64,000 nucleotides of DNA, from NCBI GenBank assembly GCA_963751955.1, contig CAVVWM010000014.1:8680-72679 (forward strand), read 5' to 3'. Position numbers and translations under genes: made by a program. The stretch is from an uncultured Acidimicrobiales bacterium. GTDB lineage: Bacteria > Actinomycetota > Acidimicrobiia > Acidimicrobiales > SZUA-35. Below are positions 12,013 through 32,012 of this stretch, in pieces. The notes under the pieces are model-generated. The model made no database searches. It worked only from the letters and a program-made list of their open reading frames with translations, and was not told where the DNA came from. Every line of letters starts with the position of its first letter. The stretch's first letter is position 1.

Positions 12013-12204
12013 TTCCCTCCTGCAGGCTCGTGCCTGTGCCGAGGTCGACCCCGGCGGTGGCCGCGCCGGTGGTCTGCGAATCATGACCGGGGCCGCCGGA
12101 TTTGGCTTCGATGCGAGCATCCCGGGCGAGTACTTGATCATCATTTCGAGCGAGGTCAGCTCTTCGTAGGAATTGACGGTGGTCGGAACGGGGTAGATTC
12201 TTCG

Positions 12205-12981
12205 ATGGCTCCAACGATCTTTGGTCGCTTTTTCTCACCGGGTAAGCGTGCGCGGGTGAGTGGAAAGCCGACCTCGTCCAACGGCGCATCCAGTTTTCAT
12301 CTGTTCTGGGATGTTCCGCCGGAACCACTTCGAGCTGTCGCCGTCACGCTGACGGTCCTCGAACCTCCGGCCACACCGGACCTCTATTTCTGGGCGTTGC
12401 AGGCGTCGTTTCTGGACGCTGATCGGCGCAAAGGCGCAGCGCATCTCGGACTTCAACACCATCCGGGCTACCCGGGGTCAACAGCGGCGAACTGGGGTGG
12501 TTATGACAGCGATGGGCAGGAACTCGACGGCCAATTGCTCCTGTCCTCGTCGTTGAGCAATCCCAACACGTGCGACTTTCCGTGGGTCGCCGGCGTTAGC
12601 TACCGGCTCCGAATCGAGCCTTCGCCCGACAACGGTTGGCGCGGGAGCATCACCGATCTTTCGACTAGCTCTGAGATTGTGCTCCGCGACCTCAACGGGG
12701 GCGGATCAGCGCTTGGCAGCCCCATGGTATGGAGCGAAGTGTTCGCGGACTGCGGTGCCCCCTCAACAGCAGTTCGGTGGAGCGAACCCACTGTTGAGAC
12801 CGTGTCGGGGTACCTCATCCGGGTCACCTCCGCACGCGTGAACTATCAATCCGAGGCCGCCGGTGGGTGCTCGAACACGACAGCTGCAGCGCTCGATTCA
12901 GGTGTGCTTCAGCGCACGTCATCGGATCGTGTAGTCCCACCCAACACATTTGTGAGTTTCTACGACGATCAGGATCGCTGA
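12205..12981 (+). CDS. Hypothetical protein
   Basis: 258-aa ORF with plausible composition and no family I can name. Confidence 0.4.
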   Translation: MAPTIFGRFFSPGKRARVSGKPTSSNGASSFHLFWDVPPEPLRAVAVTLTVLEPPATPDLYFWALQASFLDADRRKGAAHLGLQHHPGYPGSTAANWGGYDSDGQELDGQLLLSSSLSNPNTCDFPWVAGVSYRLRIEPSPDNGWRGSITDLSTSSEIVLRDLNGGGSALGSPMVWSEVFADCGAPSTAVRWSEPTVETVSGYLIRVTSARVNYQSEAAGGCSNTTAAALDSGVLQRTSSDRVVPPNTFVSFYDDQDR

Positions 12982-13032
12982 CCCATGCTGGGGTAGCTGT
13001 CCCAAGAAAGTGCTTGTCGGCGTGAAGTACCC

Positions 13033-14478
13033 TTGTCGGTCGAAGGCGATGCGGTAGGTGGAGATCTTGGTCGAGACAAGTGCTGGGAAGAGAACGTGCT
13101 GACGGGCGCACTCATGCTGCTCGCGCTCGCAGGTGCTGGAATCGCTATCTGGCAGGCGAGGCTCCTGATCAACCGGCCCCCGCTCGGGATCCTTTGGTTG
13201 GTTGTGTTGGCACCCTTCGACGGTGTTTTGGTCCTGTTCGATCTGCCCGGATTCATCGCCGGGTGGAAAGAGGGACTTGTGCTCGGAGTCTTCCTTCTCT
13301 CCTTCCTCCAGAGAGACCGCTACGAGCGGCCACCTCTACCGCGCTGGCTTGTCCCTGCCATGACGCTGCTCGGCTTCTCCGTTCTATCGTCACTGTCCGA
13401 TCCGTCGTTCGGGTCGCTCCTAGGCCTCAAGGTCGGGTTCTACTACTTGCTTGTCCCGTGGGCCCTTTGGTGGGTGCCATTCAATGCGGTCGAACGAGAT
13501 CGACTCGTATCTGTCCTCATGGGCGTGGGCGCCGTGGTGGCGCTCCTTGGGATCGCCCAACAGATCGTTGGTGCTCCAGCTCTGGTGTCGCTGGGGTATG
13601 AGTACAACGAAACGGTCCGGTTCGCGTCTGGGATCCTGCGGTCGTTCTCCACCTTCAACCAACCGTTTGCGTTTGCGTTCTTCGTCATGACCGTTCTGCT
13701 TGTCGGGATTCCCGTCGCACTTGATGAGCGCCGCCGCCGCCGCAACGTGATCTTCATGGCGTTCGTCCCGATTCTGCTGATTGGTATGGCGTCGGCAGTC
13801 GTGCGGGCGGCGTTCCTCGGCCTCGGGTTTGGTGGTTTGTGGCTTGCCGCCCACCGTTATCGATTCGTGGGACACGTGCTTGTTCCTGTGGCAATCGCCC
13901 TCATGCTCCTGCCTGCAGGTGTTGCAGCGGCAACGTTCTCTTCCACCAGCCTCCTGCAACGGACCACAGGGTGGACTGAGGCACTCTTGGAAGAGGGTGT
14001 CGAGCCCTTTGGTAGAGGTGTCGGTTCGGTTGGCGCCGTTGCCGAGCGGCTCGAGTCCGATCTGTCAGCGGCAGATACTGTGTTCCCATCTCCAACTGAT
14101 GGAGAGCGCTATCAGCCCGACAACTACTACGTGAAGACCTTGATTGAGCTTGGGCCCATTGGTCTCTGGCTACTTGTAAGCACTATGGGATTGGCGGTGA
14201 TCGCAGCTCGCTCAAAGAGCATTTGGGCTGTTGACCGCCGCGATGCAAGCCTCGCCGCCGGTATCACAGCAGCAACGATTGCTGCCATTGCTACTGCACT
14301 GGTGAGCGCGTACTGGGAGATATTTCCGTCTGACCTACTTTTCTGGCTTTTGTTGGGAGTCCTGCCATCGATCACGTCTACTTCAACGCTGTTGCCCTCG
14401 TCCCATCCGGAAGCGGAGTCCAGACCTATGCTCGGGAACTCATCTCGGCTCTCGCAACCGGCTCCGACATTGACATGA
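13033..14478 (+). CDS. O-antigen ligase/polymerase-like (Wzy_C-type) polytopic membrane protein
   Basis: About 10 or more hydrophobic helices with a larger loop region, typical of O-antigen ligase family proteins. The start is uncertain. The last approximately 40 codons (SITSTSTLLPSSHPEAES..) look like out-of-frame sequence (see findings). Confidence 0.6.
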   Translation: MSVEGDAVGGDLGRDKCWEENVLTGALMLLALAGAGIAIWQARLLINRPPLGILWLVVLAPFDGVLVLFDLPGFIAGWKEGLVLGVFLLSFLQRDRYERPPLPRWLVPAMTLLGFSVLSSLSDPSFGSLLGLKVGFYYLLVPWALWWVPFNAVERDRLVSVLMGVGAVVALLGIAQQIVGAPALVSLGYEYNETVRFASGILRSFSTFNQPFAFAFFVMTVLLVGIPVALDERRRRRNVIFMAFVPILLIGMASAVVRAAFLGLGFGGLWLAAHRYRFVGHVLVPVAIALMLLPAGVAAATFSSTSLLQRTTGWTEALLEEGVEPFGRGVGSVGAVAERLESDLSAADTVFPSPTDGERYQPDNYYVKTLIELGPIGLWLLVSTMGLAVIAARSKSIWAVDRRDASLAAGITAATIAAIATALVSAYWEIFPSDLLFWLLLGVLPSITSTSTLLPSSHPEAESRPMLGNSSRLSQPAPTLT

Positions 14479-15446
14479 GCGCCCGTGTCCAGGAACGGAG
14501 CGTCACCCTGCTTCCCCAACGAGTTCAACGCCACGTGGTGCCTAACAGCGACGGCGTCCGGCGAGCCGTACAAGGCCTGAAGCCGATCGAGCGGAGCGTT
14601 CCTCACGATCACACGGTTGTGCATGGGCTCGATGTTGATCTCCCACTCGGTCGCTCCAGGCCCACGGTTGCGACCGTTCATGATCTCTCCGTGTTCGATG
14701 TCCCATGGACCTTCGACGGACTTCGGTCGCGGGGGGAGCGGGCTCTGCTCTCGTTCCATCTGAAGCGCGCCGATGCGCTGATCTCTGTGAGCAACTTCAC
14801 CGCCGAGCGATTGATGGACCGGTTCGGACTCGAATCCACCGTCGTTCACATCGCACCCTCCACCGAAGTCGTAGGACCAACCGAGGCCCAGGTCGGTTCA
14901 GTTCGGAGCCGGTTTCAGCTCCCGGATCGATTCGTGTTGTTCGTCGGCACGGTCGAACCACGTAAGGATGTTGCGGCACTTGCCGACGCATGCCGACGGA
15001 TCGGGATCCCGCTCGTTGTGGCGGGTCGTCGGATGAGCTCAGTGCCAAACGAAGAGGGCGTTCGATTCCTCGGCTATGTCGACACTGCGGATCTCGCCCC
15101 GCTGATGGTCGCCTCTACTGCGGTGAGCTATCCGTCGGTCTATGAGGGTTTCGGCTTGCCGCCTCTCGAAGCGCTTCAGGTTGGAGCGGTGAGCGTCGCA
15201 ACTTCGGTGGGGGCGTTACCCGAGGTCCTTGGCTCCTACGGTTATCCGTTGGTTCCCGCCAGCGACCCTGGTGCCCTCGCGGAACTGCTTGGCGACGTTG
15301 TCGGCGATGACATCCTCCGCGGGGCCATGCTCGCAGCCGGCCGAGATGCGCTGAGCCATCTCAGCTGGGAACGGGTGGCGAGCGAAACCATGCAGGTCTA
15401 CGCCGGAGTTGCATCGTCGACGGTCGAGGGAGGCAACAATGGCTAG
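14475..15446 (+). CDS. GT4-family glycosyltransferase (true 5' end probably upstream of first start codon)
   Basis: C-terminal GT-B motif YPSVYEGFGLPPLEALQVGAVSVATSVGALPEVLG. ATG 14475 overlaps the upstream stop (ATGA). However, the same frame is open back to 14334 and encodes a typical GT4 N-terminus (AIDHVYFNAVALVPSGSGVQTYARELISALA) with no ATG/GTG/TTG. Confidence 0.75.
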   Translation: MSARVQERSVTLLPQRVQRHVVPNSDGVRRAVQGLKPIERSVPHDHTVVHGLDVDLPLGRSRPTVATVHDLSVFDVPWTFDGLRSRGERALLSFHLKRADALISVSNFTAERLMDRFGLESTVVHIAPSTEVVGPTEAQVGSVRSRFQLPDRFVLFVGTVEPRKDVAALADACRRIGIPLVVAGRRMSSVPNEEGVRFLGYVDTADLAPLMVASTAVSYPSVYEGFGLPPLEALQVGAVSVATSVGALPEVLGSYGYPLVPASDPGALAELLGDVVGDDILRGAMLAAGRDALSHLSWERVASETMQVYAGVASSTVEGGNNG

Positions 15447-16548
15447 AGGAGCCGGGCAAGCCAGCAAGAACTTGGTGGTCGATGTCATCACAGAGCCATC
15501 GGCCGCTCGCCGGCTGGAACAGGAATGGAATGCTCTTGCGGTGTTGTGCGAGGCCCAGCCCTTTGGGTTGCCTGCGCTTGCTCTCCGGTGGTGGGAGCAC
15601 CTCGGGAAGGGACAACTTCGGATCGCCACGGTGCGGCATGGCGACGGTAGGTTGGTTGGACTTGCGCCGCTGTATGAACGATCCCGTGTCGGCGTTCGCA
15701 CGACTCGTTTTCTTGGATACGGGTTGGGGGCAATCGGTAGCCTGCTTTCGGTGCCGAGTCGGGCCAATGTGGACGGTGCGCTGTGGGAGGCGGTGCTCGG
15801 CGACGAGCGATCGACGCTGGTGCTCAATGACTACCAGTCCCACGCCGCTGGCTTCGACATGCTGCGTCGTTCGGACCGTTGGGCGTTCCGTGCCGAGCTG
15901 AGCGATGAGTGCCCGATCACCGACCTCGCCGAGTTCCCCGGTACCGACGTACTGCTCAAGGATCCATTGAAGTCTGGTGTGCGGAAGAAGTTGGCCCACG
16001 CTCGTCGAAACGCAGCGACCGAGCAGGTCACAGTCACGGTCGTTCAGAATCCTGGCGAGGTGCAGGTGGCGATGGACCGTGTCGGGCCTCTTTACGATCG
16101 AGCCGAGGACTTGAACCCGCGGCTGCATCTCGATCAGGCTCCGTACAGGCAGTTCTTCCGGGCCGCCCTCAGCGCCCTCGCTGATCGAGATCAGGTGGCG
16201 GTACTAACTCTCGACATCAACGGCGAACCTGCCGCGTTCGACGTGTATGTTCTCGTCGGTACGGTTGCCTACGCGATTCTCGGTCGCTACGACCCTCGCT
16301 GTGCCGACTTCTCACCCGGGCTGCTGCTCATGGATCGCGGCGTGCAGTGGGCTGTGGACCAGGGCATCCGCCGGATCGACTGGCAGCTTGGAGCCGACCC
16401 TTACAAGCTGCGTTGGTCGACCGATACCTACGACACATTCAACATCATGGCCGGGCACCCGGCGCGAACCAGGGCAGCTCGGCCGGTAATATCGGTGGCC
16501 GAGGTTGCCTACGACCTGAAGGAGCGAGCTACATCGTGGCGGACCTGA
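15439..16548 (+). CDS. CelD/BcsL-like (FemAB/GNAT-fold) acyltransferase
   Basis: MARGAGQASKNLVVDVITEPSAARRLEQEWNALA.. resembles cellulose-biosynthesis CelD-like acetyltransferases. gggagg lies 5 nt upstream of ATG 15439. Overlaps the preceding GT4 by 8 nt. Confidence 0.6.
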   Translation: MARGAGQASKNLVVDVITEPSAARRLEQEWNALAVLCEAQPFGLPALALRWWEHLGKGQLRIATVRHGDGRLVGLAPLYERSRVGVRTTRFLGYGLGAIGSLLSVPSRANVDGALWEAVLGDERSTLVLNDYQSHAAGFDMLRRSDRWAFRAELSDECPITDLAEFPGTDVLLKDPLKSGVRKKLAHARRNAATEQVTVTVVQNPGEVQVAMDRVGPLYDRAEDLNPRLHLDQAPYRQFFRAALSALADRDQVAVLTLDINGEPAAFDVYVLVGTVAYAILGRYDPRCADFSPGLLLMDRGVQWAVDQGIRRIDWQLGADPYKLRWSTDTYDTFNIMAGHPARTRAARPVISVAEVAYDLKERATSWRT

Positions 16549-17393
16549 TTCACCTTCCCACAACCATCCGTTCGCTTGCGGATTTCCAGAACGGCTTCGC
16601 TGTCCAGCACACGTTGGCCGAGCTTGAACTGCTGAACCCCGCTGGGGTACAGGATCTGGCCGATCGGCTCCCGCCGGGAAGTGCGGAGCCCGGTCGGAGT
16701 GGGTTGGTTGCCGAGGGAGGGCTGGGGTACATACGCGGTCCTATGACCGACGCCGGCCCGGCGGTGCGCGCCCTCCCGGGCAAGAACGCCTCGGTATATC
16801 TGTACAACGTCGAGCAAGACCCCGAGTATGGCCACCTCATCAGTCGCATCCTCGGTGAGGTGTCACACAAACTGGGGATGGCCGACAGCGACATCAAAAC
16901 TCACGAGGGCTACGTCTTTCTCACCGGGGGCGCTGCCACCACTTCGGTGCACGTTGACCACGAATACAACTTTCTCCTGGTCGTCAGAGGCCACAAACGT
17001 GTCTTCATAGCTGACGTACCCAGCGAAGAGGGTGAACGGGCTCTCGAGTCCATGCACAGCGGTGGGTACGGGACATGTGACTCGATTCCTACCTCGGGAA
17101 CAATGTTCGAGATCGGATCTGGTGAGGGCGTTTTTATTCCACCGCGAGCAGCCCACTACGTAGAGAACGGTCCCGGGCCCTGCGCTGCTCTGTCGGTGGT
17201 CTTCTCCACTGCAGAACTCGAGGCTGAGGCCAAGATGTACCGAACCAATGCGTTGCTGCGCAGAGTTGGGTTCGACCCAAAGAGTCCCGGTGTTTCCCCC
17301 AAGTTCGATCAGGGCAAGCGTTTGTTTGCCGATGTTGCGATGACAATCCGACGAGCTGGGCGAGCCATCACCAATCTTCGCACGGCCAATTGA
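16536..17393 (+). CDS. JmjC/cupin-type Fe(II)/2-oxoglutarate oxygenase-like protein
   Basis: HxD...H triad candidates (SVHVDHEY ... PPRAAHYVEN) in a cupin-like context. I chose GTG 16536 (aaggag upstream, overlaps the CelD-like stop) rather than the ORF-track start at 16347. Confidence 0.55.
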   Translation: MADLIHLPTTIRSLADFQNGFAVQHTLAELELLNPAGVQDLADRLPPGSAEPGRSGLVAEGGLGYIRGPMTDAGPAVRALPGKNASVYLYNVEQDPEYGHLISRILGEVSHKLGMADSDIKTHEGYVFLTGGAATTSVHVDHEYNFLLVVRGHKRVFIADVPSEEGERALESMHSGGYGTCDSIPTSGTMFEIGSGEGVFIPPRAAHYVENGPGPCAALSVVFSTAELEAEAKMYRTNALLRRVGFDPKSPGVSPKFDQGKRLFADVAMTIRRAGRAITNLRTAN

Positions 17394-18469
17394 TGGGTTC
17401 TCCGAGCGCCTTGGACTGAAACTCGTCTACAGCGGTAGCCGCGAGTTTTGGTGCTCCGTCAGAGGCGAACAGTCCAAAGTTGTCTTCGATGTCCTCAGGG
17501 TCGCCGTCGACTCGATCTCGAAGGTTGTACAGGAACAGTACCTCGATCCAATCGGTCTGATTCGCGCAACCCAGAGCGTCTGAGACCAGCCGCTCCTGCG
17601 TAGGCTGCGACACCGCTCGAGATGCGGTCCCGGTCGGTGCCCCGTACTCAGTTATCCAGAGCGGCATGAACTCGCCGGTCGACTCCGTGGCGAAGGCTTG
17701 GATCTGGGGAAGACGCCCAAAAAGATTCCACGACTTGGACGTGTCACCGGGCGAAGCCGGGTAGCTGTAGGGATGTATGCCGATCGCATCAATTGTTCCA
17801 GGCTCAATTGAGGCAAGAAAGCCCTCCAGGAACGTCTCGGGTGAGAGCTCCTCCCCGCGAGTCGTCGACTGCGGGCGCGAGGCCCCCGCTGATGATCTGA
17901 GCGCTGGGATCGATGCCTCTGATCGATCTGGAGGCCGTGGTCACGAGCGCAGCGAACTTCTGTGGATTCGGACCCGAGGATGCCGACCAGAACGAAGCCA
18001 CGTTGGGTTCGTTCCATATCTCCCAGGATTTGACCCCCCGGTCGCTGTATCTCTGGGCCGCAGTGGCCACAAATGCTCCGAAGTCGGTTGGGTTGGTGGG
18101 GGGATGTTTGTCGGTTGTGCCCGGCGGTCGTGCCCACCTGGGCGTATACGCGACGAGGGCGTGGACGGCGATATTGCGGGACTCGGCGGCCTCCACGATG
18201 CGATCGAGATCCGACCAGTCGTAGTCGCCCGCTGATCGTTCAATCCTCGACCAATCGAAGTCCAGGCGAAGATGCGTGAGATTCAGGTCGCTCATTCGGT
18301 CGAGGTCATCGGCGAGTGTCTCTGGGTCGAGATCCAGAATTCGCGAGCCGGGCGACATGCCCAGTTCCATTTGGTTCTTTGGGGCCTGTGGAACTTCTGG
18401 TCTGTTCAGGGAAAGGACGCCAATGACTGTCAAGAGGATGATGATGGCAATCAACTGAAGGCGCTTCAT
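17368..18469 (-). CDS. Clan GH-A glycoside hydrolase (GH5/GH39-like), signal-anchored; one frame break at the C-run 17853-17856
   Basis: N-terminal anchor MKRLQLIAIIILLTVIGVL, acid/base motif WEIWNEPN, nucleophile motif LWITEYG. The two ORFs (17804..18469 and 17368..17667) are bridged by the in-frame peptide EELSPETFLEGFLASIEPGTIDAIGIHPYSYP once one base of the gggg run is removed. Confidence 0.75.
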
Positions 18470-20368
18470 CCCGACGACAAATCACCAACGGTGGCCAGCT
18501 GGTGATCGGGCCAGGATCGCTGTGGACGAAGAAGGTGGTACAGGAACCGTGCCGGAGACGAGTGAGCACCCATGGTCAATCGAGGAAGGCGGAGATTGTC
18601 GACCCCGCCGGTGGCACGGCCATTCAGGAACGTGCACGCTGAGGTATATCCGGCGTCTACGACTGCGGCGCGAACCGACGGATCGTGGTGCCCGCTGGGA
18701 TAGGCCATGGCTTGGACCCGGCGATCGGTCAGCTCCTCCAGGGCGAGTCTTGAGCGACGCAGCTCATCGTCAACCTCGCAGTTCTCGAGGGCTACGAGAG
18801 AACGGTGGGTGGCCGTGTGGGAGCCGAGAGAATGGCCGGCTGCTACGGCCGAGCGCAGTTCCTCCGAGGTCATCGTCCTCTCGGCACCGGGCCAAAAGGC
18901 TGGCGGCTCTCCGGGGTGGTCGGTGGGAACGAAGATCGTGGAGCAGATTCCGGCGTCGTTGAGGACGGGGAGCCCCACACGGGAAACCCCGGCCAGCGCG
19001 TCGTCAAAAGTGACAGCGAGAAGTCCGCCGGGGTCCTCCCCGGATGAGACGAGCTGAGCCATGAAAGAAACATCAACGACCCGCAGCCGGAGTGCTCGGA
19101 CAAGGCGGAGGTGTGATCGAAGTTGAGATTCGGTCACGGTGAACTCGTCGATACCGGGCTTCAGCGGCGTGTGGTCTTCCACCACGTTGTGGTAGGCGAG
19201 GATGACCCCACCCCTCGGGGTGAATTTCATCGCCGTATTTCCCCGGTGGTTTTGTGCCGCAATGGCCTGTTCGAACACGTCGGTGAGCGCCTCGATAGCC
19301 ACGGCCATATCGTACCGTTCCTCGAAACGACGGCGTGCTGCGGCCCCCATCCTGCGACGCAGGTTCTCGTCGTCCATGAGGGTCTGAATGGCTGCTTGGA
19401 GCGCCTTGCTGTCATTGGCTTCGATGAGAAACCCGGTCTCGCCGTGCGCAACCATCTCGCCGACGGCGCCAGTGTTGACTGCAACCACGGGCAAGCCGGC
19501 TGCCATCGCCTCGAGCACGGCATTTGGTGCTTGATCGATCGAGGAGGGAAACGCGAATATCGAGCAACGTCCGAGTAAGTCCCATAGGCGGTTGTCGCCC
19601 TGTTCGAGGTCGGAGACAACCGAGATGTTTTCTGCCGCGTCCATGGGTTCAGTGGTGACGATGAGCAACTGAGCCGGCCCCGAGAGTTGCGAAAACGCTT
19701 CGAGGAGCACTTCGCCACCCTTGGCCTTGAATTGACGGCCGATGAAGCCGATCGTTGGTGCATCGGTCCTGCCAACACCGGTGGTGGGAGAAGGAATGCT
19801 CCACGAAATTCCAAACGGAATTGTCCTGAGTTTGTCGGGTCCGACTGCGTACTCGGTCGACAGCGATTCACGCGCCCAGCTCGAGTTGGCGACGACGACT
19901 GTGCTGGCGTGTAATGCTCGCCGTTCGATCGGCTTTGGTAAGGGCGACGGTTAGCCGCGTGAATCGGGTAGGCATTCGCTGAGGGATGCGATAGGCGTTG
20001 TGGACATTGGTGGTATCCGTGCTGATCACCATCGGTGTCTCGGGTGTCAGGAGGAGAGCGGCGTTCTGGGTGTATACGTGAAGAGCGTCGTAGGTTCCGC
20101 GGCGATGGCGAACGGCGCGTCTCACCCAGTAGCTGAGAGCGAGCTGGGCACGCAGCGGCTGGAGGTCGAGATCGAGGCGAGCGAGCCCGGGAATCCGCGC
20201 ACCAATCAGGCGCCTCAAGAGGCCCGGCTCGGGAACGTCGAGGAACGTTGCGTCGATACGTGGATGATCGCGAAGACCAGCCCTCAGGTGGTTGTGTACG
20301 GTCGCATGTCCGCCAATGTTCTCGTTGACGAACAGCACTCGGATTCTGGCTACTGACTGATCGGTCAT
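18466..20368 (-). CDS. Bifunctional GT4 glycosyltransferase / NodB-type polysaccharide deacetylase (frame break between 19871 and 19950)
   Basis: ORF 19868..20368 is the GT4 N-domain. The 18466..19710 frame is open upstream to about 19950 (KPIERRALHASTVVVANSSWARESL..GFIGRQFKAKGGEVLLEAF). It continues through the GT4 C-domain (AFPSSIDQAPNAVLEAMAAGLPVV) into a NodB-like domain (VTFDDALAGV..GSHTATH). ATGA overlaps occur at both ends (20365-20368 and 18466-18469). Confidence 0.75.
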
Positions 20369-21594: not shown

Positions 21595-22152
21595 GTGGTC
21601 AGTTACGCAATGCATCTGGTAACAATGGCAGCCGACACCGAGTCGATCGCGACCCTGGACGTGGGCGATGAGGTGAGTATCGGCACGTGGTTCGGGAGCT
21701 TGCTCTTCCTTCTGGCCGCGGCGGCTCTCTTTCTTGCAGGACGGCAAGAGCCACGGCCCAGTCGATGGTTGGGATGGAATTCGCTGGCGGTCGTGATGGT
21801 GGCCTTGTCGATCGACGAAGCGGTCTCGCTTCACGAGCGCTTCGGAAACGTTCTCGAGGAGGTGGTGGGGAGTGGCGGCTACCTGCATTACGTCTGGGTT
21901 GTACCTGGCATGATTTTCACCGTTGGTGTCCTGGTCGCGCATCTTGGTTGGCTTCGCTCGGTCCGGCCTGCCACCAGATTCGGAATGGTCGTGGGAGGCG
22001 CGTTGTTTGTGCTGGGAGCCGTCGGACTCGAGATTGCAGCGGGTCCCCTGGCCGAGGCCCAGAAGGACGGCACATTGGCCCTGGTCACATTGATCGCTAT
22101 CGAGGAGTTGCTCGAGATGGCGGGTCTGACGGTGTTCACAGTGGCTGTTTGA
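21595..22152 (+). CDS. Hypothetical integral membrane protein
   Basis: 185 aa with about 5 hydrophobic helices. It is the only plus-strand gene inside the minus-strand GT block. Confidence 0.45.
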   Translation: MVSYAMHLVTMAADTESIATLDVGDEVSIGTWFGSLLFLLAAAALFLAGRQEPRPSRWLGWNSLAVVMVALSIDEAVSLHERFGNVLEEVVGSGGYLHYVWVVPGMIFTVGVLVAHLGWLRSVRPATRFGMVVGGALFVLGAVGLEIAAGPLAEAQKDGTLALVTLIAIEELLEMAGLTVFTVAV

Positions 22153-22209
22153 GGCATCTCCGCGGAGCTCATGATGGCCTGTTGATCGGCTGAGGGGACC
22201 ACTGATCGA

Positions 22210-23337: not shown

Positions 23338-24640
23338 GCTGGATCGACCGCGGTGGAGGGCCACGCTGCCGATCGACGCCCCATGCGGAATCCACCGTCG
23401 CTGTACAACACGATGCCGGCGAGTCGAGCTCCGACCGACCGCATTCGATCGATCAAATCAACAACTTCGGCTTCCTTGAGACGCACTGGGTCGAACGCAA
23501 GCACGGTGGCGTCACCAAAGTGGCGGGTGACAAGCAGTGTGTCATCGAGCGATGAGTTGGATGTTGTGCTGAGCACGACACAGTCGGCGCCCGAAGCACT
23601 GACGAGCTCATGGGTTGCATGTACCCTGTCGAAAGCCGACAGGTCCGTTGGCGTTGAGCCCGCACTGAGCACGGCGGCCGGGTTGGAGTCGCTCGCTCGG
23701 CGCACGACTGATCCCAGCGGCTCACCTCCCGTCAGGACCTCGGCGAGACCGGGTGTACGCGGGTGACCGAAGTGTCGATGCAGGATCGGCTGGGCGAGGT
23801 CGGCGTCGATGAGTAGCACTCGGCTGTTGAGTCCGGCCGCGGTCCTGGCCAGTAGGGCGGCTGGTTCGGTAGAGGGCTCCGGGCCGCGTTGCACGATGGT
23901 GATGAGCGGTCGTTCTGAGAGGTGGTTGGAAAAGAACGGAAGAAGCGAACGATTCTGGGATCGTTCCGAACGCAAGTCGGCAACGGGGATCCCTGTAATA
24001 CCTTCGAGGACCGGAGCGGGATCGACCGGGTTGATATGGCCCCTCAACTTCCTCCACACCACCACCCCCTCCGCGGACAGAAGGCCACAGATCACAGCTG
24101 CCACCGCTGCATCCGCGAGCGGACGGGGCGAGACCGGTGAGTTTGGAGAGTCTGCGGGGGATATTACGGCGACGACCACCCCGGTTTCGGGCGACGTGCC
24201 TTCGGCGGCAAGTTCGTCGGCCAACGCCTGGGCCAGCTTCGATGCCTGCTCGCCTGTGCTCGCGGCCGCGGTGATCTCGAGGAAGCCCGGTGTTTCGCGC
24301 TGTTCTACCACGACGCGATCGCCGACGTCGGACGGGTCGAGGCCGGTGTCTCCGGCTGTCACGTTCGCTGCGTCGAGGACCGCGGGGAAAAGGCAAGTTC
24401 GGCGAGCGATCGGGTTCTGAAGCGGGTTGTGGAGCCGTCGTCAAACAAGTCCTCGGGCAACTGGACCCGCACGACCGCTGTCGACTCATACCGCGGCTCC
24501 GCCGAGTTGCTCCACAGGTACATCGCGGTACCCGCCGCAGCGGTGATGAGGAGGATCAGGACCCAATGGCGTGCCATCTCACGGACATGACGGCCAAACT
24601 CCGCTTCGGGTGGCTTCACTGTGGCGTAGGGCGCAGTCAT
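23334..24640 (-). CDS. Polysaccharide co-polymerase (Wzz-like N-domain plus BY-kinase-like domain with degenerate Walker motifs); frame break at the G-run 24384-24387
   Basis: N-terminal TM plus YESTAVVRVQLPE (Wzz-like). Adding one c joins AELAFSP to AVLDAANVTAGD. The C-domain has LLIDADLAQP (Walker A'-like). Where GxxGxGK[ST] is expected it reads QRGPEPSTEP, and where hhhhDTPP is expected it reads CVVLSTTS. ATG 24640 overlaps the WbaP stop (ATGA). Confidence 0.7.
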
Positions 24641-26154
24641 TTCACTGATCGCGGGAGCAATTCGCGAAGGGTTCGCATGACGATCCGCAGATCTCCCATC
24701 AGTGACCAAGACTCGACATAGGTGTTGTCGAAACGCACCCGCTCGGCTATCGAAGTGTCACCCCGCAGTCCACTGACTTGGGAGAGGCCGGTGAGGCCTG
24801 ATGGCACTCGATGGCGGTGGTGATAGCGGCGGTTGAGGGTGGCGAACTCTCCGACGAAGTGCGGACGTTCGGGGCGCGGCCCCACGAAGCTCATCTCGCC
24901 CCGGAGGATATTGACCAACTGAGGCAGCTCATCCAATGAGCTAGCACGCAGGAGTGCTCCCAGTCGCGTAGGTCCTCTGGTGGACTCGCCGGCCCACTCG
25001 GTGTCGGCGGTCTCGGTCGATGCGTTGGGCAAGGAACGGAACTTCAGCATCTGAAATTCTTGACCGTCGATGCTGACACGTACCTGGCGAAATATCACCG
25101 GTCCCCCCATCGTGATACGTATGGCGATCGCAATCGCCAACAGCAGTGGGCTGAGGGCGAGCAGTAGGATCGCGGCGAGGAGGCGATCCAGAATCAGCTT
25201 GACCTTCCATGCAATGGTTCGATGTGCTGCACGGCGAAGTCTGCGCAGGGAAATCGATCGAAGTCGCTCGACCTCGGCTGGGGCTCCCCAGTCGAGTTCG
25301 TACAGCCTCGGCACCAAGAAGAACTCGGCCCGCTCTCGGTGATACCGCTGTAGGTATTCCACGAGCTGGGAATCCGGAAGTGAGGAGTATCCGATCACAA
25401 CGACCGTTGCACCCGTTTGCTGAATCGATCGGCCCAGACTTGTGGAGGAGAACACGGGCAGGTGACGCTTCACACCCCTGAGAGGCTCCGGATCATGGAA
25501 TGCCACGGGTGTCAATCCGTACTCGGGATACGACGAGAGTGTCTCCGCGATCTCGGCTCCGACCAATCCGGCGCCGACGATGAGGGTTCGATGGCTGACT
25601 ATTCCGGTCCGCCGCACGAACCGAAGGAGCCAGCAGCCAACCGCTCGGACAATCACGATGGCCCCAGCGGCCGCCGCTACGGCGACCCACCAGCTACGGC
25701 CGTACTCACCGCCCAGCTGAGGGATCGTGGCCGTTCCGTTCTGGCTCAGCATGTAGATGAACGATCCCACAACCAGCACGCCACCGATCAGTGCCGGGGC
25801 GTCGTCGACCGTGCTGGGCGCAAGGCGGGATCTGTACAGTCCACGGGACCCATTGAGAGCCAAGACGCAGACGGCAGCTATAGCTATTCCGGTCGGATTT
25901 TGGCCGAACAGCGCCAACGTCACGACGAACGCTGTCATTTCGCCAATCATGAACCACGGCGGTGTGCCAAAGCTCGCCAGGTTGCGCCCAACGCTGGTAG
26001 AACCGGTCCCGGGAGCGACTACTTGCCGTCGGGATTCGAAAACATCGATCTCGGGATTCCGCATGTCGAGTTGCGTTGCCGTCGCCCGAAGTGGGGTTTC
26101 GTCATCGCTGGAGTTCTCGCGCCCCCACTCTCGGGTTCTATGAAGTAAAACCAT
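24637..26154 (-). CDS. Polyprenyl-phosphate sugar phosphotransferase (WbaP/bacterial sugar transferase family, priming enzyme)
   Basis: 505 aa with N-terminal TM helices and a C-terminal PVIFRQVRVSIDGQEFQMLKFRSL .. ELPQLVNILRGEMSFVGPRPERP. Confidence 0.85.
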   Translation of the reverse strand: MVLLHRTREWGRENSSDDETPLRATATQLDMRNPEIDVFESRRQVVAPGTGSTSVGRNLASFGTPPWFMIGEMTAFVVTLALFGQNPTGIAIAAVCVLALNGSRGLYRSRLAPSTVDDAPALIGGVLVVGSFIYMLSQNGTATIPQLGGEYGRSWWVAVAAAAGAIVIVRAVGCWLLRFVRRTGIVSHRTLIVGAGLVGAEIAETLSSYPEYGLTPVAFHDPEPLRGVKRHLPVFSSTSLGRSIQQTGATVVVIGYSSLPDSQLVEYLQRYHRERAEFFLVPRLYELDWGAPAEVERLRSISLRRLRRAAHRTIAWKVKLILDRLLAAILLLALSPLLLAIAIAIRITMGGPVIFRQVRVSIDGQEFQMLKFRSLPNASTETADTEWAGESTRGPTRLGALLRASSLDELPQLVNILRGEMSFVGPRPERPHFVGEFATLNRRYHHRHRVPSGLTGLSQVSGLRGDTSIAERVRFDNTYVESWSLMGDLRIVMRTLRELLPRSVK

Positions 26155-26331
26155 TAGTCGCCATTCCGCTTTTACTTGAGTTCTTTTTCTATCGCAGTTG
26201 CGCCTCAGAATCTACGAGGTCCTTGCAACTCTGCCACATCATCGATCACTATATGTGGTCAATGGTTGGTCGCTGACTGCCACCAGCAAAACGACCGGCT
26301 TCGGCGGCGGCGTCAGAGACTTTGAGGTTGC
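26155..26331. promoter_or_regulatory. AT-richer divergent intergenic region (probable promoters for the WbaP operon and the plus-strand unit)
   Basis: The composition is visibly lower in GC (cttttacttgagttctttttctatcg, cactatatgtgg) than the surrounding sequence. No confident -35/-10 pair could be assigned. Confidence 0.3.
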
Positions 26332-26652
26332 ATGGTCTCGGACTGGATTGCATGCCGAACGTATTCAGAAAACAAGGAGGTACTTATCACTACCAAGCGT
26401 GACCAAGGAGGGAGTTCCGCAGATCATGTGAACTTGGACACTGAGCCTGCCGACGAGCACGTTTGGAACGACTTCGAGGCCCTAACGGAGGAACGCGATT
26501 CGCTGCTGGCCGGGCTTGCGGCCCGCACCGGCCAGTTGCAGGCGGCACTTGGAGAGCTACATGAGGCTCAGGCTCAGCTGGCCCGCCTACGGGCCGAGAA
26601 CGATTCGAGAGCGTCGACCGTGGACTGGAAGCGCATTCTGAACCCCGAGTAG
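26332..26652 (+). CDS. Small coiled-coil protein A (hypothetical; start uncertain)
   Basis: Heptad-like LLAGLAARTGQLQAALGELHEAQAQLARLRAEN and C-terminal DWKRI. aaggagg at 26374-26380 lies inside the ORF, so the real start may be later. Confidence 0.4.
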   Translation: MVSDWIACRTYSENKEVLITTKRDQGGSSADHVNLDTEPADEHVWNDFEALTEERDSLLAGLAARTGQLQAALGELHEAQAQLARLRAENDSRASTVDWKRILNPE

Positions 26653-26850
26653 CCGACGTGGCACAAGCCAGATCTTGGCCTCGATCCATTGCGGCCTTCC
26701 CAAAAAGCGATCTGAAGTAGGACCAGCACGACCGGAAACCGAGGAGATTTTGCTGCCTACAGCAACCACGGACGTTGGTAGTCTCTTCCAATCCGAGTTT
26801 GGCGGCGGCTCACGCAGAACGATGGTCGGGCGTCCGACGACTTTGTCGCC

Positions 26851-28026
26851 GTGCTCAGGGCTTCGACAGCAACGCTCCTCGGCCGAAACCTCGGGCCGTT
26901 CCTGTCGTCGGCGCCGGTCGAGCGCATTCGAAGAGTGCTCTTCCAGGTTGGCCTCGACGATGTCGTCGAGATCGCCGATTCGCTCACCGGCGGCTGTGTT
27001 GGCTGGTGGCTCGCCGGCGGTTGGGGTATCGACGGTCTCCTCGGCTCGCAAACCCGCCCCCATGAGGATGTCGACATTTGCATCGACGTCGCCAACGACG
27101 GCGAGCAACGTGCCGTTCGGCTACTTGGCGGCCTCGGGTTTCAGCTCGTAGAAACGCGCGCTCGGGGCGGCCGATACCTTCCCGTGCGTTGTATTCTGCG
27201 TAATCGGGCCGGGCGTGCCATTGATTTACTGATGGTGCAACGGGAGGTCGACGTCGCACCGCCCGATCCACTGACGGGCTGGGCGATTCCAGTCCTGACC
27301 GAAACCGATATAACCAGTGGTGAGATCGATGGCCACCGGTTTCCTGTGCTCAGCGTCACCGCCCATCTCGAAGCTCGTTCGGTGTACCAACCAATGGCCC
27401 GGGACCATCGCGACATGGTGCGGCTGTGCGAGGCCTACGGTCTCGAGCTTCCTGCAAACTATCTGTCGAGAACGCGTCGATACATCGACGGTTCGAAACG
27501 GCTGTTGGGCAGGTTCCAAACAGCGAGCGCCCTTCTCATCGCAGTTCCCGAGGTTGGGGTTGTGTTGGCCGACCTTGATGCCGAGGACTCGGGTTTGCCG
27601 CCCCACATCACCGTGCTCTACCCATTCAAGAAACCCGGCCAAATCAAGTCGCCCGACGTCCGAAAGCTGACCGAGCTGGCACGGTCGGCGGAGTCGCCAA
27701 TCCCTTTCGAACTCGACAAGGTCAGAGACTTCAACGGTGACGCATATCTGGCACCAAATCCTTCCCAGCCCTTTGTTGAGCTAACCCAGACAGCTTCTGA
27801 GATCTGGCCGGACCACCCGCCCTACGGCGGCAAGTTCGACGACATCGTTCCCCATCTCACACTTGGGGTTCGAGATCTTTCGCCGGTCGAGATCGACGAA
27901 CTTTCCAACAAGCTTCCGGTGTCGGCTTGCGCCACCGAACTTCTGCTTCTCACCCGGAACCGACGGGGCCGATGGACCGAGCACTCACGGTTCTCGATCG
28001 GGTCCAGGTCGGAGTCGAAGCGGTGA
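26851..28026 (+). CDS. Fusion of a Pol-beta-type nucleotidyltransferase (ANT(2'')-like) and a 2H phosphoesterase (LigT-like)
   Basis: N-domain: LAGGWGIDGLLGSQTRPHEDVDICI (G[GS]..DxD) and a later IDLL acidic residue. C-domain: two HxTx motifs (PHITVLYPF and PHLTLGV). Confidence 0.7.
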   Translation: MLRASTATLLGRNLGPFLSSAPVERIRRVLFQVGLDDVVEIADSLTGGCVGWWLAGGWGIDGLLGSQTRPHEDVDICIDVANDGEQRAVRLLGGLGFQLVETRARGGRYLPVRCILRNRAGRAIDLLMVQREVDVAPPDPLTGWAIPVLTETDITSGEIDGHRFPVLSVTAHLEARSVYQPMARDHRDMVRLCEAYGLELPANYLSRTRRYIDGSKRLLGRFQTASALLIAVPEVGVVLADLDAEDSGLPPHITVLYPFKKPGQIKSPDVRKLTELARSAESPIPFELDKVRDFNGDAYLAPNPSQPFVELTQTASEIWPDHPPYGGKFDDIVPHLTLGVRDLSPVEIDELSNKLPVSACATELLLLTRNRRGRWTEHSRFSIGSRSESKR

Positions 28027-29458
28027 CCGACAAACCCGTCGGTTTGCTAACGAATGCTTCTGCGCTGCTCTCAGGTCGTCTCGCTATTGCGGTCATGGGC
28101 TGGGCGGGAACGGTCATCATCGTTCGGACGCTGTCCGAGACCGGATTCGGCTATTTCACACTCGTCTTCAGCATTCTTGGTATGGCCTCGATAGTCACCG
28201 ATTTCGGGCTCGGACGGGTCGCGATCAGTGGAGTGCTCGCCCCCGAGGCCGACGCAGGTTCCTTCGCAGGGACCTATGTGGTTTTGCGGACACTCCTCGG
28301 CGTTGTCGGCTATGCCCTCGCTGTCCTTTTCGTCGTCATCGGGGGTTATCCCGAGACCGTCGTGAGAGCCACGGCGCTGGCTGGTGTGATGGTTCTGATT
28401 GCAACCCCGTCCAATGCGTACGACCTCGCATTTCAGGCGCACATGCGAATGCCGCTCGTCGCGGTTGCTCAGGTGGCGGGCCAGGCCGCTCAGCTAGGTC
28501 TTACCGTTGCAGTAGCGGTCGCAGGTGGCGGGCTCCTCTGGTTCGTCGTCCCCGCGGTCGTGGCAGAGGTGGTGATCCTGGCCATCAAGATAGGACCCGC
28601 CCGAAACTCATCGACTTCCGGTATGCGATCAGATTGTCTGTCTGGCTGGCTCTCATGAAGGAAGCCGTCCCCCTCTCGATCGGTGGAGCGCTGGTCACGC
28701 TTTACACCCGGGTCGATGCAGTGATGCTGTCGCAGTTGGATACTTTCGCCTCGGTTGGCGTGTACGGGGTCGCCGCCAAGTTCGCTGATTTGGCGAGATT
28801 TGTCGCATCCGCTTTGACGGTTCCGATTCTCACGTTGTTTGTGAGCGCATGGCCCGACCGCATCAAGGAGTTTCGATCTGCTTTGGTCAAGGGTTGCATG
28901 TTTCTTGGTTTCTTCGGAGGCGCAATTGTGGTGGAATTCACCCTCTTCGCTGACGATGTGATCGAACTCTTGTACGGGCCAACGTTTCGCGTCGGCGGTA
29001 CCGCCACGAAACTGCTGGTGCTCGGCGCCACTTTGGACTTCTTCACCACGCTCGCGTTCAGCGCGCTGGTGGCCATGTCTCGAAATCGGGTTTATCCACT
29101 CACTGCCCTGCTCGGTCTGGTTGTGAATGTCGGACTGAACCTTTGGCTTATTCCGCTCTATTCCTTCGAAGGAGCGGCGGTCGCCACAGTGGCGACAAAC
29201 ATCCTGGTCGTGGCCGTCATCTGGGCTCAGCTGCTCCGGCTGCCGGATTTGACGCCCCTCAAGCTCGGGTTTCTCAGTGGAGTTTTGCCGGCCATGGCGG
29301 CAGCCGGAGCGACCGGATGGGTAACCAATCGCTACTTGCCGTGGCCGATTGCTGGAGCGATCACGATGGCGGTCTATGTTGGGGGCGTCGAAATCACCGG
29401 AGCCGCCGGCCCCGGCGGGATTCGCCTGATCCTCGCTCGTGTCGGGCGCCGACAATGA
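28023..29458 (+). CDS. Wzx-type (MOP superfamily) polysaccharide flippase; frame break at the A-run 28604-28606
   Basis: The frame-0 ORF (..LTNASALLSGRLAIAVMGWAG..AEVVILAIKIGPAR) joins the frame-2 ORF (KLIDFRYAIRLSVWLALMKEAVPLSIGG..) if one a is added. About 12 or more helices. The start is either GTG 28023 (GTGA overlap) or ATG 27972. Confidence 0.75.
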
Positions 29459-29492
29459 CGCCTTGTAGGGTTGGGGATTACTGTAGGCGTTC

Positions 29493-29879
29493 ATGCACAA
29501 CGCAGAAGTTCCGGTGCCGTCGGGTTCGGTTGAAAGGTGGCATTCGGTGAAGCGGCGTCTCCGCATTCCTTGGGAGGAAGGCGCGTCGAGTCCGCTGGAC
29601 CCGGAGCCCAAGTTCAACCCCCCGTCTTCTGATTCGGGTATCGGGTACGCCCAACGCGAGGCCGAATCGCTCCAAGCCGAGATCGAGCAGTTGCAGGATC
29701 TGTTGGCTGCCCGGACTGCAGCCTGGCGAGAGGCCCTGCGACAACTTTCCCAGGTTCAGGACGAAATCGATGCGGCCGGCCAGAGCTCGCTGGAGAATCG
29801 CCGGATTCAACCTCTGTCCGAAGAGGACTGGGTGCGGATTCATAGCAATAGCTTGAAGCCGAGGGGCCAGCGGCGCTGA
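29493..29879 (+). CDS. Small coiled-coil protein B (hypothetical; paralog of 26332..26652)
   Basis: LQDLLAARTAAWREALRQLSQVQDEI .. EEDWVRI parallels protein A (LAART, AL..L...Q, DWxRI). The stop TGA 29877-29879 is the first bases of the 19-bp array. Confidence 0.4.
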   Translation: MHNAEVPVPSGSVERWHSVKRRLRIPWEEGASSPLDPEPKFNPPSSDSGIGYAQREAESLQAEIEQLQDLLAARTAAWREALRQLSQVQDEIDAAGQSSLENRRIQPLSEEDWVRIHSNSLKPRGQRR

Positions 29880-30379
29880 TCTAACCCAGCTGTGCTGATC
29901 TAACCCAGCTGTGCTGATCTAACCCAGCTGTGCTGATCTAACCCAGCTGTGCTGATCTAACCCAGCTGTGCTGATCTAACCCAGCTGTGCTGATCTAACC
30001 CAGCTGTGCTGATCTAACCCAGCTGTGCTGATCTAACCCAGCTGTGCCGATCTAACCCAGCTGTGCTGATCTAACCCAGCTGTGCTGATCTAACCCAGCT
30101 GTGCTGATCTAACCCAGCTGTGCTGATCTAACCCAGCTGTGCTGATCTAACCCAGCTGTGCTGATCTAACCCAGCTGTGCTGATCTAACCCAGCTGTGCT
30201 GATCTAACCCAGCTGTGCTGATCTAACCCAGCTGTGCTGATCTAACCCAGCTGTGCTGATCTAACCCAGCTGTGCTGATCTAACCCAGCTGTGCTGATCT
30301 AACCCAGCTGTGCTGATCTAACCCAGCTGTGCTGATCTAACCCAGCTGTGCTGATCTAACCCAGCTGTGCTGATCTAAC
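29876..30379. repeat. 19-bp perfect tandem array, 26.5 copies (unit ctgatctaacccagctgtg)
   Basis: Read directly: 26 full units plus 10 nt, with a single substitution (T to C at 30048). Each unit contains GATC and CAGCTG palindromes and stop codons. A period of 19 is not a multiple of 3. There are no spacers. Confidence 0.97.
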
Positions 30380-30517
30380 AATGAGTGCTGGCCCAACTCT
30401 CTCCGTCACATGTTCGCAACATCTCCAATTGGGCTGCTACCCTCTCACCATCGTCTGAGCCGTGAAGTTCTTGTGACCGATCGGTAACCAATTCAGGACC
30501 AGAGGGGTCAAACAGTC

Positions 30518-31096
30518 GTGTCGAAAGAGATCGACCAACTTGTAGAGAAGGCCAGAGACGGTGACCACCGCGCCTTTGAACAACTTGTTCGAGAAACCTA
30601 TGTCGACACGTATACCTTGGCCTTCCGGTTGACCGGGGATCCAGAAGATGCACGCGATGTGGTGCAGGAGGTGTACCTGAGGGTGCACAAGAGCCTGCGC
30701 CGATTCCGTGGTGACTCGCAGTTCAAGACCTGGCTGCATCGAATCACTGCGAACTGCGCAAGCACACTTCTGGGACGGCGCACAAAGCACCGTCACGACC
30801 CGATGCCTGAAGATGCACCAATCGCCGACAACAACCCTGAGCTGGATCCAGCTGCAAGGGCAGACACCGGCGTACTGCGAAACCAACTCACTGATGCCTT
30901 GAGGGGCCTTCCCCCCAAGCTCAGCGCGGTTGTGGTTCTGCGAGATATCTACGATTTCTCACACGAAGCCATTGCCGCCGAACTCGGTATCTCAGAATCT
31001 GCTGCCAAGGTACGTCTCCACCGGGCCCGCAAGCGCCTGCGCGAGATTCTCCGTACGCACGAAGATTCTGAAGAGGCCGAGGCGCATGCAGTGTGA
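30518..31096 (+). CDS. ECF-type RNA polymerase sigma-70 family factor
   Basis: 192 aa. Region 2 (HRAFEQLVRETYVDTYTLAFRLTGDPEDARDVVQEVYLRVHK) and region 4 (AVVVLRDIYDFSHEAIAAELGISESAAKVRLHRARKRL). GTG start. Confidence 0.85.
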   Translation: MSKEIDQLVEKARDGDHRAFEQLVRETYVDTYTLAFRLTGDPEDARDVVQEVYLRVHKSLRRFRGDSQFKTWLHRITANCASTLLGRRTKHRHDPMPEDAPIADNNPELDPAARADTGVLRNQLTDALRGLPPKLSAVVVLRDIYDFSHEAIAAELGISESAAKVRLHRARKRLREILRTHEDSEEAEAHAV

Positions 31097-31448
31097 CGAC
31101 GTAATCCTTCACCTCGCACAGTCGCCCGATGAGGCGTCGAATGACTACCTTCGGTTGCCGGTGCGACATCACCTCGCTACTTGCCTGTCCTGTCAGGCGG
31201 AGCGGGCTCAGTACCGTCGACTGCACCGAGAGCTTCAGACGCTGCGCTACGACGTCGTGATGCCCGACGATCGACTACTGGTCGATGTCCTCGATAGCGT
31301 CCGTCCACCGGCAACGGTGACACAACTGAGGCCGAGCCGCCGCAAAGCGTATGTCGGCGGCATCGCTGCCGCAGCAACCGCAGGCGCAGCAGGAGCGCTC
31401 GTGCTGGTATCCAAACTCAGCTCCAAGGGTCACCGTCTAGCCGGATAG
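31086..31448 (+). CDS. zf-HC2 anti-sigma factor, single-pass
   Basis: HHLATCLSC fits Hx3Cx2C. C-terminal TM (GGIAAAATAGAAGALVLV). Overlaps the sigma gene by 11 nt. Confidence 0.7.
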   Translation: MQCDDVILHLAQSPDEASNDYLRLPVRHHLATCLSCQAERAQYRRLHRELQTLRYDVVMPDDRLLVDVLDSVRPPATVTQLRPSRRKAYVGGIAAAATAGAAGALVLVSKLSSKGHRLAG

Positions 31449-31534
31449 CCGTCCCGGTGTCTGATTCAGAGCGCTCGCTACGCCCATATCGAAGCCAGAT
31501 CGTCAGCGAGCGCTGCTATCCTTCAGCTTCCCCA

Positions 31535-32007: not shown

Positions 32008-32012
32008 GACCC

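Follow-up and report, generated by a model that had tools for sequence, protein, structure and literature searches.

A predicted surface-glycan gene cluster between tuf and tRNA-Trp-secE in an uncultured Acidimicrobiales bacterium

How did a set of predicted glycan genes come to lie between tuf and tRNA-Trp-secE, inside a conserved array of translation and transcription genes? The question is raised by a stretch of 64,000 nt from an uncultured Acidimicrobiales bacterium (GenBank assembly GCA_963751955.1, contig CAVVWM010000014.1), called the window here. It spans positions 8680-72679 of the contig (G000:C14:8680-72679, G000 being the genome under study), and positions below are window coordinates unless a contig is named. 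The gap between tuf and tRNA-Trp measures 19.5 kb (12013-31534) in G000. The original prediction, made from the letters of the window, described a glycan block of this size interrupting the array, and the synteny of the tuf/secE neighbourhoods bears this out, as the deeper relatives have no such block there. The part that is specific to G000 is 17.4 kb long. We favor a lineage-specific rearrangement in which a chromosomal Wzx/Wzy-dependent glycan cluster (exopolysaccharide or cell-wall polysaccharide, the pathway logic being read from protein families) was gained from a related Acidimicrobiales lineage in the common ancestor of G000 and its closest congener, G003. We infer both the direction (gain and not loss) and the mechanism, and we estimate the probability of the whole explanation at roughly 0.7.

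The flanks of the gap and two further residents of it are as follows.

10496-10571, plus strand: tRNA-Thr(GGT), upstream of tuf (ARAGORN).
10665-10739, plus strand: tRNA-Met(CAT), upstream of tuf (ARAGORN).
10825-12012, plus strand: tuf, a tufB-like second EF-Tu copy (Pfam GTP_EFTU and domains D2 and D3).
12205-12981, plus strand: g258, a conserved ConA-like jelly-roll protein of 258 aa with a weak DUF3472 match.
30405-31448, plus strand: an extracytoplasmic function (ECF) sigma factor gene (30518-31096; Pfam Sigma70_r2 and r4_2) and a putative anti-sigma gene (30930-31448; weak match), with their conserved promoter region.
31535-31608, plus strand: tRNA-Trp (ARAGORN).
31535-45181, plus strand: the resumed array of tRNA-Trp, secE, nusG, rplK, rplA, rplJ, rplL, an EamA transporter gene, rpoB and rpoC.

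Beyond tRNA-Trp, the genes secE, nusG, rplA, rplJ, rplL and the EamA-family transporter gene have Pfam matches; rplK, rpoB and rpoC were assigned through similarity to the array of relatives. The arrangement of the same site in other genomes was determined by tblastn of the window proteins against the relatives' tuf regions, plus tRNA scans.

G040 and G032 (other families of the order): tRNA-Thr-tRNA-Met-tuf, then tRNA-Trp-secE within 0.4-0.5 kb.
G037 (another family): tuf-ECF-anti-sigma-tRNA-Trp-secE.
G019 (same family, another genus): tuf-ECF-tRNA-Trp-secE.
G002 and G007 (same genus): tuf-ECF-anti-sigma-tRNA-Trp-secE.
G004 and G001 (same genus, rpoB 97% identical to that of G000): tuf, a gene for a 1529-aa FG-GAP/PKD protein, g258, ECF. 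Here tuf is seen directly in G004 only; the G001 contig starts inside the giant open reading frame (ORF).
G005 (same genus): tuf-g258, then the contig end.

The tRNA-Thr and tRNA-Met pair precedes tuf in G002, G007, G019, G037, G040, G032 and G005, and the order tRNA-Thr/tRNA-Met/tuf is, judged by this synteny, ancestral across the order. In the order-level outgroups the distance from tuf to tRNA-Trp is 0.4-1.6 kb. Eight genomes without the block at this site still have the ECF pair in the interval from tuf to tRNA-Trp: the six congeners G001, G002, G004, G005, G007 and G010, G019 from a second genus of the family, and G037 from a second family of the order. In G004, G010 and G005 the ECF gene was located upstream of tRNA-Trp-secE, and in G001 ECF and anti-sigma genes follow g258. 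Since the pair occupies the site without the block, it is an old resident of the gap; it is not cargo, although the original prediction had counted it among the inserted genes. The region upstream of the sigma gene (30405-30517) is conserved in the genus. It contains an inverted repeat, GTCACATG...CATGTGAC, and the motif GGTAACC-N17-GGGGTC, which ends about 10 nt before the GTG start codon. This suggests that the gene is autoregulated from an ECF-type promoter and that its leader is very short.

The g258 gene follows tuf in G005 and directly precedes ECF in G004 and G001, all three being congeners without the cluster at this site. By this distribution it is a younger resident of the gap than the ECF pair, older than the glycan genes, and it lies outside the insert. 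Its AlphaFold model (predicted local distance difference test score, pLDDT, 82) is a ConA-like jelly roll; the best Foldseek match was 4qhw, a putative sugar hydrolase of DUF3472 type (E=5e-10), and next in rank came the HC7 O-glycopeptidase and glutamic peptidases. In G004 and G001 the DNA similarity to G000 leaps from g258 (about 12.9 kb) to 30404-30515. The G000-specific segment is thus 12982-30404 (17.4 kb, about 16 genes), limited on the left by the g258 stop codon and on the right by the ECF promoter region; the right limit at about 30405 was set by the junction sequences together with the promoter alignment. The insert sits between operons. The tuf gene, the ECF/anti-sigma pair, tRNA-Trp and secE-nusG are intact and colinear, and with junctions at a stop codon and a promoter the neighbouring expression signals are untouched. 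The segment is missing at the junction in G002, G007, G019, G037, G040 and G032 as well as in G004 and G001, and its presence there is read as the derived state.

In G004 and G001 a gene for a 1529-aa protein with FG-GAP and PKD repeats lies just upstream of g258 (locus L031, G004:C66, 7765-12351; locus L032, G001:C147, 2-3586). In these two genomes, the closest congeners after G003, the site thus holds another surface-type cargo. By these comparisons the content of the tuf/ECF gap differs among members of the genus.

A multigene block that is missing from most relatives and has tRNA genes on both sides within 1.3 kb resembles a classical horizontally acquired island, brought to a tRNA target by a site-specific recombinase. 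Neither junction of the segment holds a tRNA gene. The nearest ones lie 1.3 kb off on the left side and 1.1 kb off on the right, separated from the junctions by tuf and by the ancestral ECF pair, respectively; the block is not bounded by tRNA genes as had been predicted. No integrase, transposase, recombinase or relaxase domain was found in the scanned ORFs of 12.0-31.5 kb, in agreement with the original prediction for the first two. Att-like direct repeats were not detected at the borders, whose longest common word is 9 bp, and the block contains no tRNA fragments (tRNA matches were 12 bp or shorter). The GC content is flat at about 0.61, which is the genome value, and the tetranucleotide distance of 5-kb windows of the block from the genome mean lies at the 3rd to 45th percentile of 1473 genome windows; outliers occur only where the tandem repeat described below or ribosomal genes lie. 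The checks that the original prediction had proposed (GC and tetranucleotide profile, tRNA-fragment direct repeats at the borders) gave a native composition and empty borders. The divergent, AT-richer promoter region that it had seen in the block (26155-26850) amounts to a marginal dip (GC 0.573 vs. 0.61). In contrast to tRNA-targeted islands, the block lacks an integrase, att repeats and a deviating composition, and its site is not a tRNA gene. It was concluded that the block is not a self-mobile island, and arrival by a tRNA-directed recombinase is hardly credible.

One sequence feature does stand out close to the right junction.

29867-30379 (513 bp), no strand assigned: a near-perfect tandem repeat, 27 copies of a 19-bp unit, CCAGCTGTGCTGATCTAAC (Tandem Repeats Finder: 27.0 copies, 99% match).

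This array (GC 0.53) is the only clear GC dip; it forms the right edge of the segment and stops 25 bp short of the conserved ECF promoter region. The repeat has no other occurrence in the genome and is absent from all relatives fetched.

The genes of the segment, from left to right, are as follows.

13033-14478, plus strand: g481, a polytopic membrane protein of WaaL/Wzy (O-antigen ligase/polymerase) type, by structural match only.
14334-15446, plus strand: a GT4 glycosyltransferase (Pfam Glyco_transf_4 and Glycos_transf_1); the frame is open from 14334 and the first start codon is at 14475.
15409-16548, plus strand: an Acetyltransf_6 (FemAB/GNAT-like) acyltransferase (Pfam PF13480, E=7.6e-25).
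16347-17393, plus strand: a cupin/JmjC-like putative oxygenase (weak Cupin_8 and JmjC_2 matches, below the Pfam cut-off).
17371-18469, minus strand: a TIM-barrel glycoside hydrolase (GH), frame-split (N half GH42, GH5 and GH10; C half Glyco_hydro_cc).
18466-20368, minus strand: a GT4, then a CE4 polysaccharide deacetylase (Pfam Glycos_transf_1 and Polysacc_deac_1).
20365-23364, minus strand: two GT4s (20365-21495 and 22210-23364; Pfam) with a small unassigned ORF between them.
23334-24362, minus strand: a polysaccharide co-polymerase (PCP)/bacterial tyrosine kinase (BY-kinase)-like protein of the chain-length regulator type (NCBIfam EpsG, E=2e-14, Wzc and eps_fam, all far below their cut-offs).
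24637-26154, minus strand: a WbaP-like polyprenyl-phosphate sugar-1-phosphate transferase of 505 aa (Pfam Bac_transf, E=3.9e-56).
26851-28026, plus strand: an ANT(2'')/Lnu-like nucleotidyltransferase fused to a 2H phosphoesterase (NTase-2H; Pfam PF10706 and PF13563, NCBIfam Lnu-like).
28030-29458, plus strand: a Wzx-type flippase (weak NCBIfam and Pfam matches).

The gene inventory of the original prediction was essentially right for WbaP, the GT4s, the hydrolase, the deacetylase, the acyltransferase, the NTase-2H fusion and ECF; the matches behind its PCP, flippase and oxygenase are weak. An initiating transferase (WbaP-like) and four GT4 genes for building a repeat unit are present. Among these four, one is frame-broken in this assembly and one has no start codon at the opening of its frame. 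In the frame-broken case the N-domain lies at 19868-20368, and a single frame at 18466-19710 joins the C-domain to the deacetylase. The flippase matches NCBIfam Wzx_EPS over profile positions 194-477 (E=1.4e-6, 27 bits vs. a cut-off of 800), MurJ weakly, and Pfam Polysacc_synt below the cut-off (E=1.2e-3). Its listed ORF starts at 27863, and the real start is probably after the NTase-2H stop codon. No Pfam or NCBIfam match was found for g481, and sequence searches of the PDB with g258 and with g481 gave no match for either. The g481 model is all-helical (pLDDT 52) with a single outstanding Foldseek match, the WaaL ligase 7tpg (E=5e-3, TM-score 0.41 to 0.45), which at this model confidence is suggestive only.

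In a pathway of this kind the WbaP-like transferase would start a lipid-linked repeat unit and the four GT4 enzymes would extend it. The Acetyltransf_6, cupin-type and CE4 deacetylase enzymes may modify the unit. Flipping would fall to Wzx, and polymerisation or ligation to the WaaL/Wzy-like protein. Chain length would be controlled or trimmed by the PCP-like protein and the glycoside hydrolase. A search of the window for the ECF-type promoter motif (GTAACC-N15-19-GGTC), made to see whether the adjacent sigma factor might also control the cluster, found only the sigma gene's own promoter and a near-chance site at 37110. Scans of the block for sigma-70 promoters and terminators gave no more sites than shuffled sequence, and a literature search on Acidimicrobiia exopolysaccharide clusters found nothing relevant.

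Where else does the cluster occur? The closest congener, G003 (rpoB and tuf both 98% identical), has a contig (C10) that starts about 70 bp past the expected tuf end and carries g258, then the cluster, collinear through WbaP. The cupin and NTase-2H genes have no homologue on this contig, and the flippase gene is inverted there. The two clusters share 65-81% amino acid and about 71% nucleotide identity, and the fast-evolving flank gene orf441 shows 75%; with divergence of the cluster equal to that of orf441, vertical descent suffices to explain the sharing by G000 and G003. The genomes of G004 and G001 have no close WbaP orthologue (best matches 36-37%). In G002 and G005 a shorter cluster with another gene order is found elsewhere in the chromosome. 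In G010 (rpoB 96%) the gene directly upstream of ECF, in the opposite orientation, is a GT4 gene with 54% identity to GT4_323, and another contig carries WbaP and GT4 genes (52-55% identity). The original prediction had held that presence of the block in all close relatives, or a tuf that is a second copy beside an ancestral block, would speak against an insertion. This tuf is indeed a second copy; the block is carried by only one close relative, G003, and probably in a different form by G010.

On a wider scale, a profile built from g481 homologues retrieved 78 actinomycetotal loci among GTDB species genomes (Acidimicrobiia, Williamsia, Gordonia, Nocardia, Mycolicibacterium and others). The recurring module is g481, GT4, GT4, (GT4 + deacetylase), GH, GT4, (PCP-like), WbaP. 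By these matches the module is widespread in Acidimicrobiia and Mycobacteriales. Apart from G003, none of the 78 loci has tuf, ECF, secE or nusG within 10 kb. In the trees, G000 and G003 group with G015 (another genus of the family) and with loci L049, L051 and L052; the support for this group is 99 in the g481 tree, 96 in the GT4_384 tree and 100/100 with seven concatenated proteins. Gene order is the same in G000, G003, G015 and L051, and in L052 as far as its contig reaches. The clusters of the congeners G002 and G005 fall outside the group of G000, G003 and G015. For the seven concatenated proteins, the approximately unbiased (AU) test rejected a single clade of the four same-genus clusters (p=2.8e-5, at a cost of 102 log-likelihood units). 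Most likely, the ancestor of G000 and G003 either acquired the cluster from a related lineage of Acidimicrobiales through recombination or moved it from another place in its own genome, and the cluster would have entered, or been retained, exactly between the g258 stop codon and the ECF promoter. An empty donor site was sought around the G002 cluster (contig C5), and the ORFs flanking that cluster have no syntenic counterparts in G000.

The position of the G010 genes allows another history, in which the cluster is ancestral at the tuf/ECF site for G000, G003, G004, G001 and G010, was lost in G004 and G001, and diverged or was rearranged in G010, so that G000 merely retained it. The GT4 beside ECF in G010 fits this history, as does the placement of the G010 GT4, GT4 and WbaP proteins in the same type-A clade as those of G000 and G003 (98 by SH-aLRT, the Shimodaira-Hasegawa-like approximate likelihood ratio test). 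The native composition agrees with a long stay; it fits a gain or an older residence equally, because any donor would be a close relative. On the other side, G010 is not sister to G000 and G003 in the cluster tree (exclusion support 83, weak), and its proteins are only 52-55% identical vs. 73% for the fast-evolving flank gene. Its GT4 is opposite in orientation and at the opposite end of the cluster. No remnants of a cluster were found in the 100-165 bp between g258 and ECF in G004 and G001, and the site is empty in the deeper congeners G002 and G007 and in the outgroups. We consider ancestral residence followed by loss unlikely.

Several points weigh against the preferred explanation, a gain in the G000 and G003 ancestor. 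The group tested by AU was chosen after the trees had been seen, and G002 and G005 sit on a long branch. The type-A GT4 beside ECF in G010, together with its clade, means that the cluster may be older at the site and lost in G004 and G001. The right junction (cluster, repeat, ECF) is known from the G000 assembly only, since in G003 the contigs break before it, the second of them within the anti-sigma gene. For Wzx, Wzy and PCP, the assignments depend on sub-threshold matches and a low-confidence model. With at least three frame-broken cluster genes, function is not assured.

The frame breaks, relative to intact ORFs in G003, G015 and G019, affect the glycoside hydrolase (about 17371-18481), one GT4 (about 19871-19950) and the N-terminus of another GT4 (14334-14475). 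The hydrolase is a single ORF of 370-381 aa in G003, G015 and G019, and relatives have one GT4 ORF of 415-452 aa and a separate deacetylase ORF. The essential rpoC gene is also split, by a 1-bp deletion relative to G002 at about 44168; the breaks are therefore most likely indels of the long-read assembly and not decay.

Could the assembly have produced the arrangement itself? A second tuf gene lies on the same contig (G000:C14:84435-85619), 64.9 kb downstream, where it ends the operon rpsL-rpsG-fusA-tuf and is followed by the S10 operon. The original prediction was correct that the tuf of the window stands without rpsL-rpsG-fusA; this is no anomaly, because the "lonely" gene is the tufB-like copy and the other one closes that operon. 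The two coding sequences differ by 2 nt and their identity ends close to the coding limits, which points to gene conversion between direct repeats 65 kb apart, i.e., concerted evolution. A chimeric join at the duplicated tuf or at a tandem repeat, through error in assembly or binning, could in principle have put an unrelated glycan locus into the ribosomal-protein region, and the two nearly identical tuf copies, the indel errors (e.g., the rpoC frameshift) and the 513-bp repeat in the right junction would be its signs. The left joins are backed by independent assemblies, tuf-g258 by G005 and G004 and g258-cluster by G003. G010 independently has a cluster GT4 beside ECF, the composition matches the rest of the genome, and the 19-bp repeat, unique in the genome, could not have mediated a false join. 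An artefact of this type is very improbable.

Concerted evolution of tufA and tufB is known in Salmonella (PMC6735719), and the two copies in G000 evolve in the same manner. They are 65 kb apart in G000 and 76 kb apart in G002, compared with 26 kb in G019 and 18-21 kb in three outgroup families. For the tufB-secE-rpoBC-str supercluster, multigene insertions between operons have been documented in Gammaproteobacteria and Bacilli (PMC6735719; PMC8046335). In Salmonella the contiguity of tufB and secE is selected via overlap of a terminator and a promoter, leaving a neutral insertion window of only 13 nt (PMC6735719). A survey of 204 genomes counted 163 alteration events, concentrated in particular lineages and usually beginning with a small inter-operon insertion, for which a transposon or segmental duplication was the favored mechanism (PMC8046335). 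As in these cases, the inserted genes in G000 lie between operons, at the tufB/secE junction, with the flanks colinear. G000 also has an insertion between rpoBC and str and a gene between rplL and rpoB, which fits the relaxed constraint and stepwise disconnection reported for certain lineages. The case differs in that it belongs to another phylum (Actinomycetota, Acidimicrobiales), in the size of the insert (17.4 kb, about 16 genes, vs. the small number of genes described as the first step), in the nesting of events (the gap already held the ECF pair, then g258), and in showing no visible transposon or segmental duplication.

The other interruptions of the array were noted along the way. An EamA/DMT transporter gene and a 106-bp tandem repeat (3.8 copies) lie between rplL and rpoB (35965-37217), and the gene is found at the same spot in G002 and G003. 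A second and larger interruption of 27.5 kb separates rpoC from rpsL (45182-64000 and on to about 72655 on contig G000:C14). Its genes are unrelated and include an aminotransferase, Mo-hydroxylase subunits, a MoxR-like AAA protein, a DUF4214 protein, a GT4 and a UDP-GlcNAc 2-epimerase. In the order-level outgroups G040, G037 and G032 rpoC and rpsL are contiguous, and about 50 kb separates them in G002. At the left edge of the array, an MFS transporter gene (9172-10266) between orf441 and tRNA-Thr is another small presence/absence difference: G003 and G005 have it, and G002 lacks it there. Many intergenic tandem repeats of 90-200 bp occur genome-wide with a core like GGAGGGAC(G/A)(A/G)AGCAGC (e.g., G000:C14:44644-45050, 113966-115499 and 136850-137195; also in locus L009 of G002, 7400-7690), and the tuf-ECF spacer of G002 is filled by a related two-copy repeat. 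There are also three arrays of the 9-bp unit CCGGTTGAT, 46-51 copies each (window 1520-1935; G000:C14:1400-1857 and 5233-5648), which presumably encode tripeptide repeats.

Wzx/Wzy capsule and O-antigen loci lie between conserved flanks, such as cps between dexB and aliA in Streptococcus pneumoniae and the O-antigen locus between galF and gnd in E. coli. The G000 cluster is similar to these loci in its predicted parts (an initiating phosphotransferase, several glycosyltransferases, modifying enzymes and, on weak matches, candidate Wzx, Wzy-like and PCP-like proteins) and in its setting, a chromosomal site fixed by conserved flanks where relatives have different cassettes or none and mobility genes are absent. 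Unlike those loci, its flanks are translation and transcription genes (tuf, ECF sigma, secE), the alternative occupants include the non-glycan giant FG-GAP/PKD gene, and the host is a monoderm actinobacterium. Cassette exchange by flanking homology is here a possibility.

What the locus reveals is the lineage-specific placement of an ordinary cell-surface polysaccharide cluster at a weak point, of a type already known, in a conserved array of operons, and no new kind of mobile element or mechanism. A more far-reaching and rather doubtful idea is that the gap between tuf and ECF-tRNA-Trp is a dedicated cassette-exchange hotspot for the cell-surface genes of this Acidimicrobiales genus. If this were true, the occupants would be the alternative glycan clusters, the 1529-aa FG-GAP/PKD surface protein and the ConA-fold protein. 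The anchors would be ultra-conserved flanks, namely secE-nusG and tuf, which gene conversion keeps uniform. Homologous recombination between species could then take place at them, as it does at the cps and O-antigen loci, and the neighbouring, deeply conserved ECF sigma factor might sense or regulate the envelope state altered by the cassettes. The finding also extends to Actinomycetota the documented inter-operon splitting of the ancient tufB-secE-rpoBC-str supercluster in particular lineages, here by nested insertions at tuf/secE, a gene at rplL/rpoB and a 27-kb insertion at rpoBC/str. Finally, it maps a glycan-synthesis module common to Acidimicrobiia and Mycobacteriales, for the study of which cultivable strains of Gordonia, Williamsia and Mycolicibacterium could serve.

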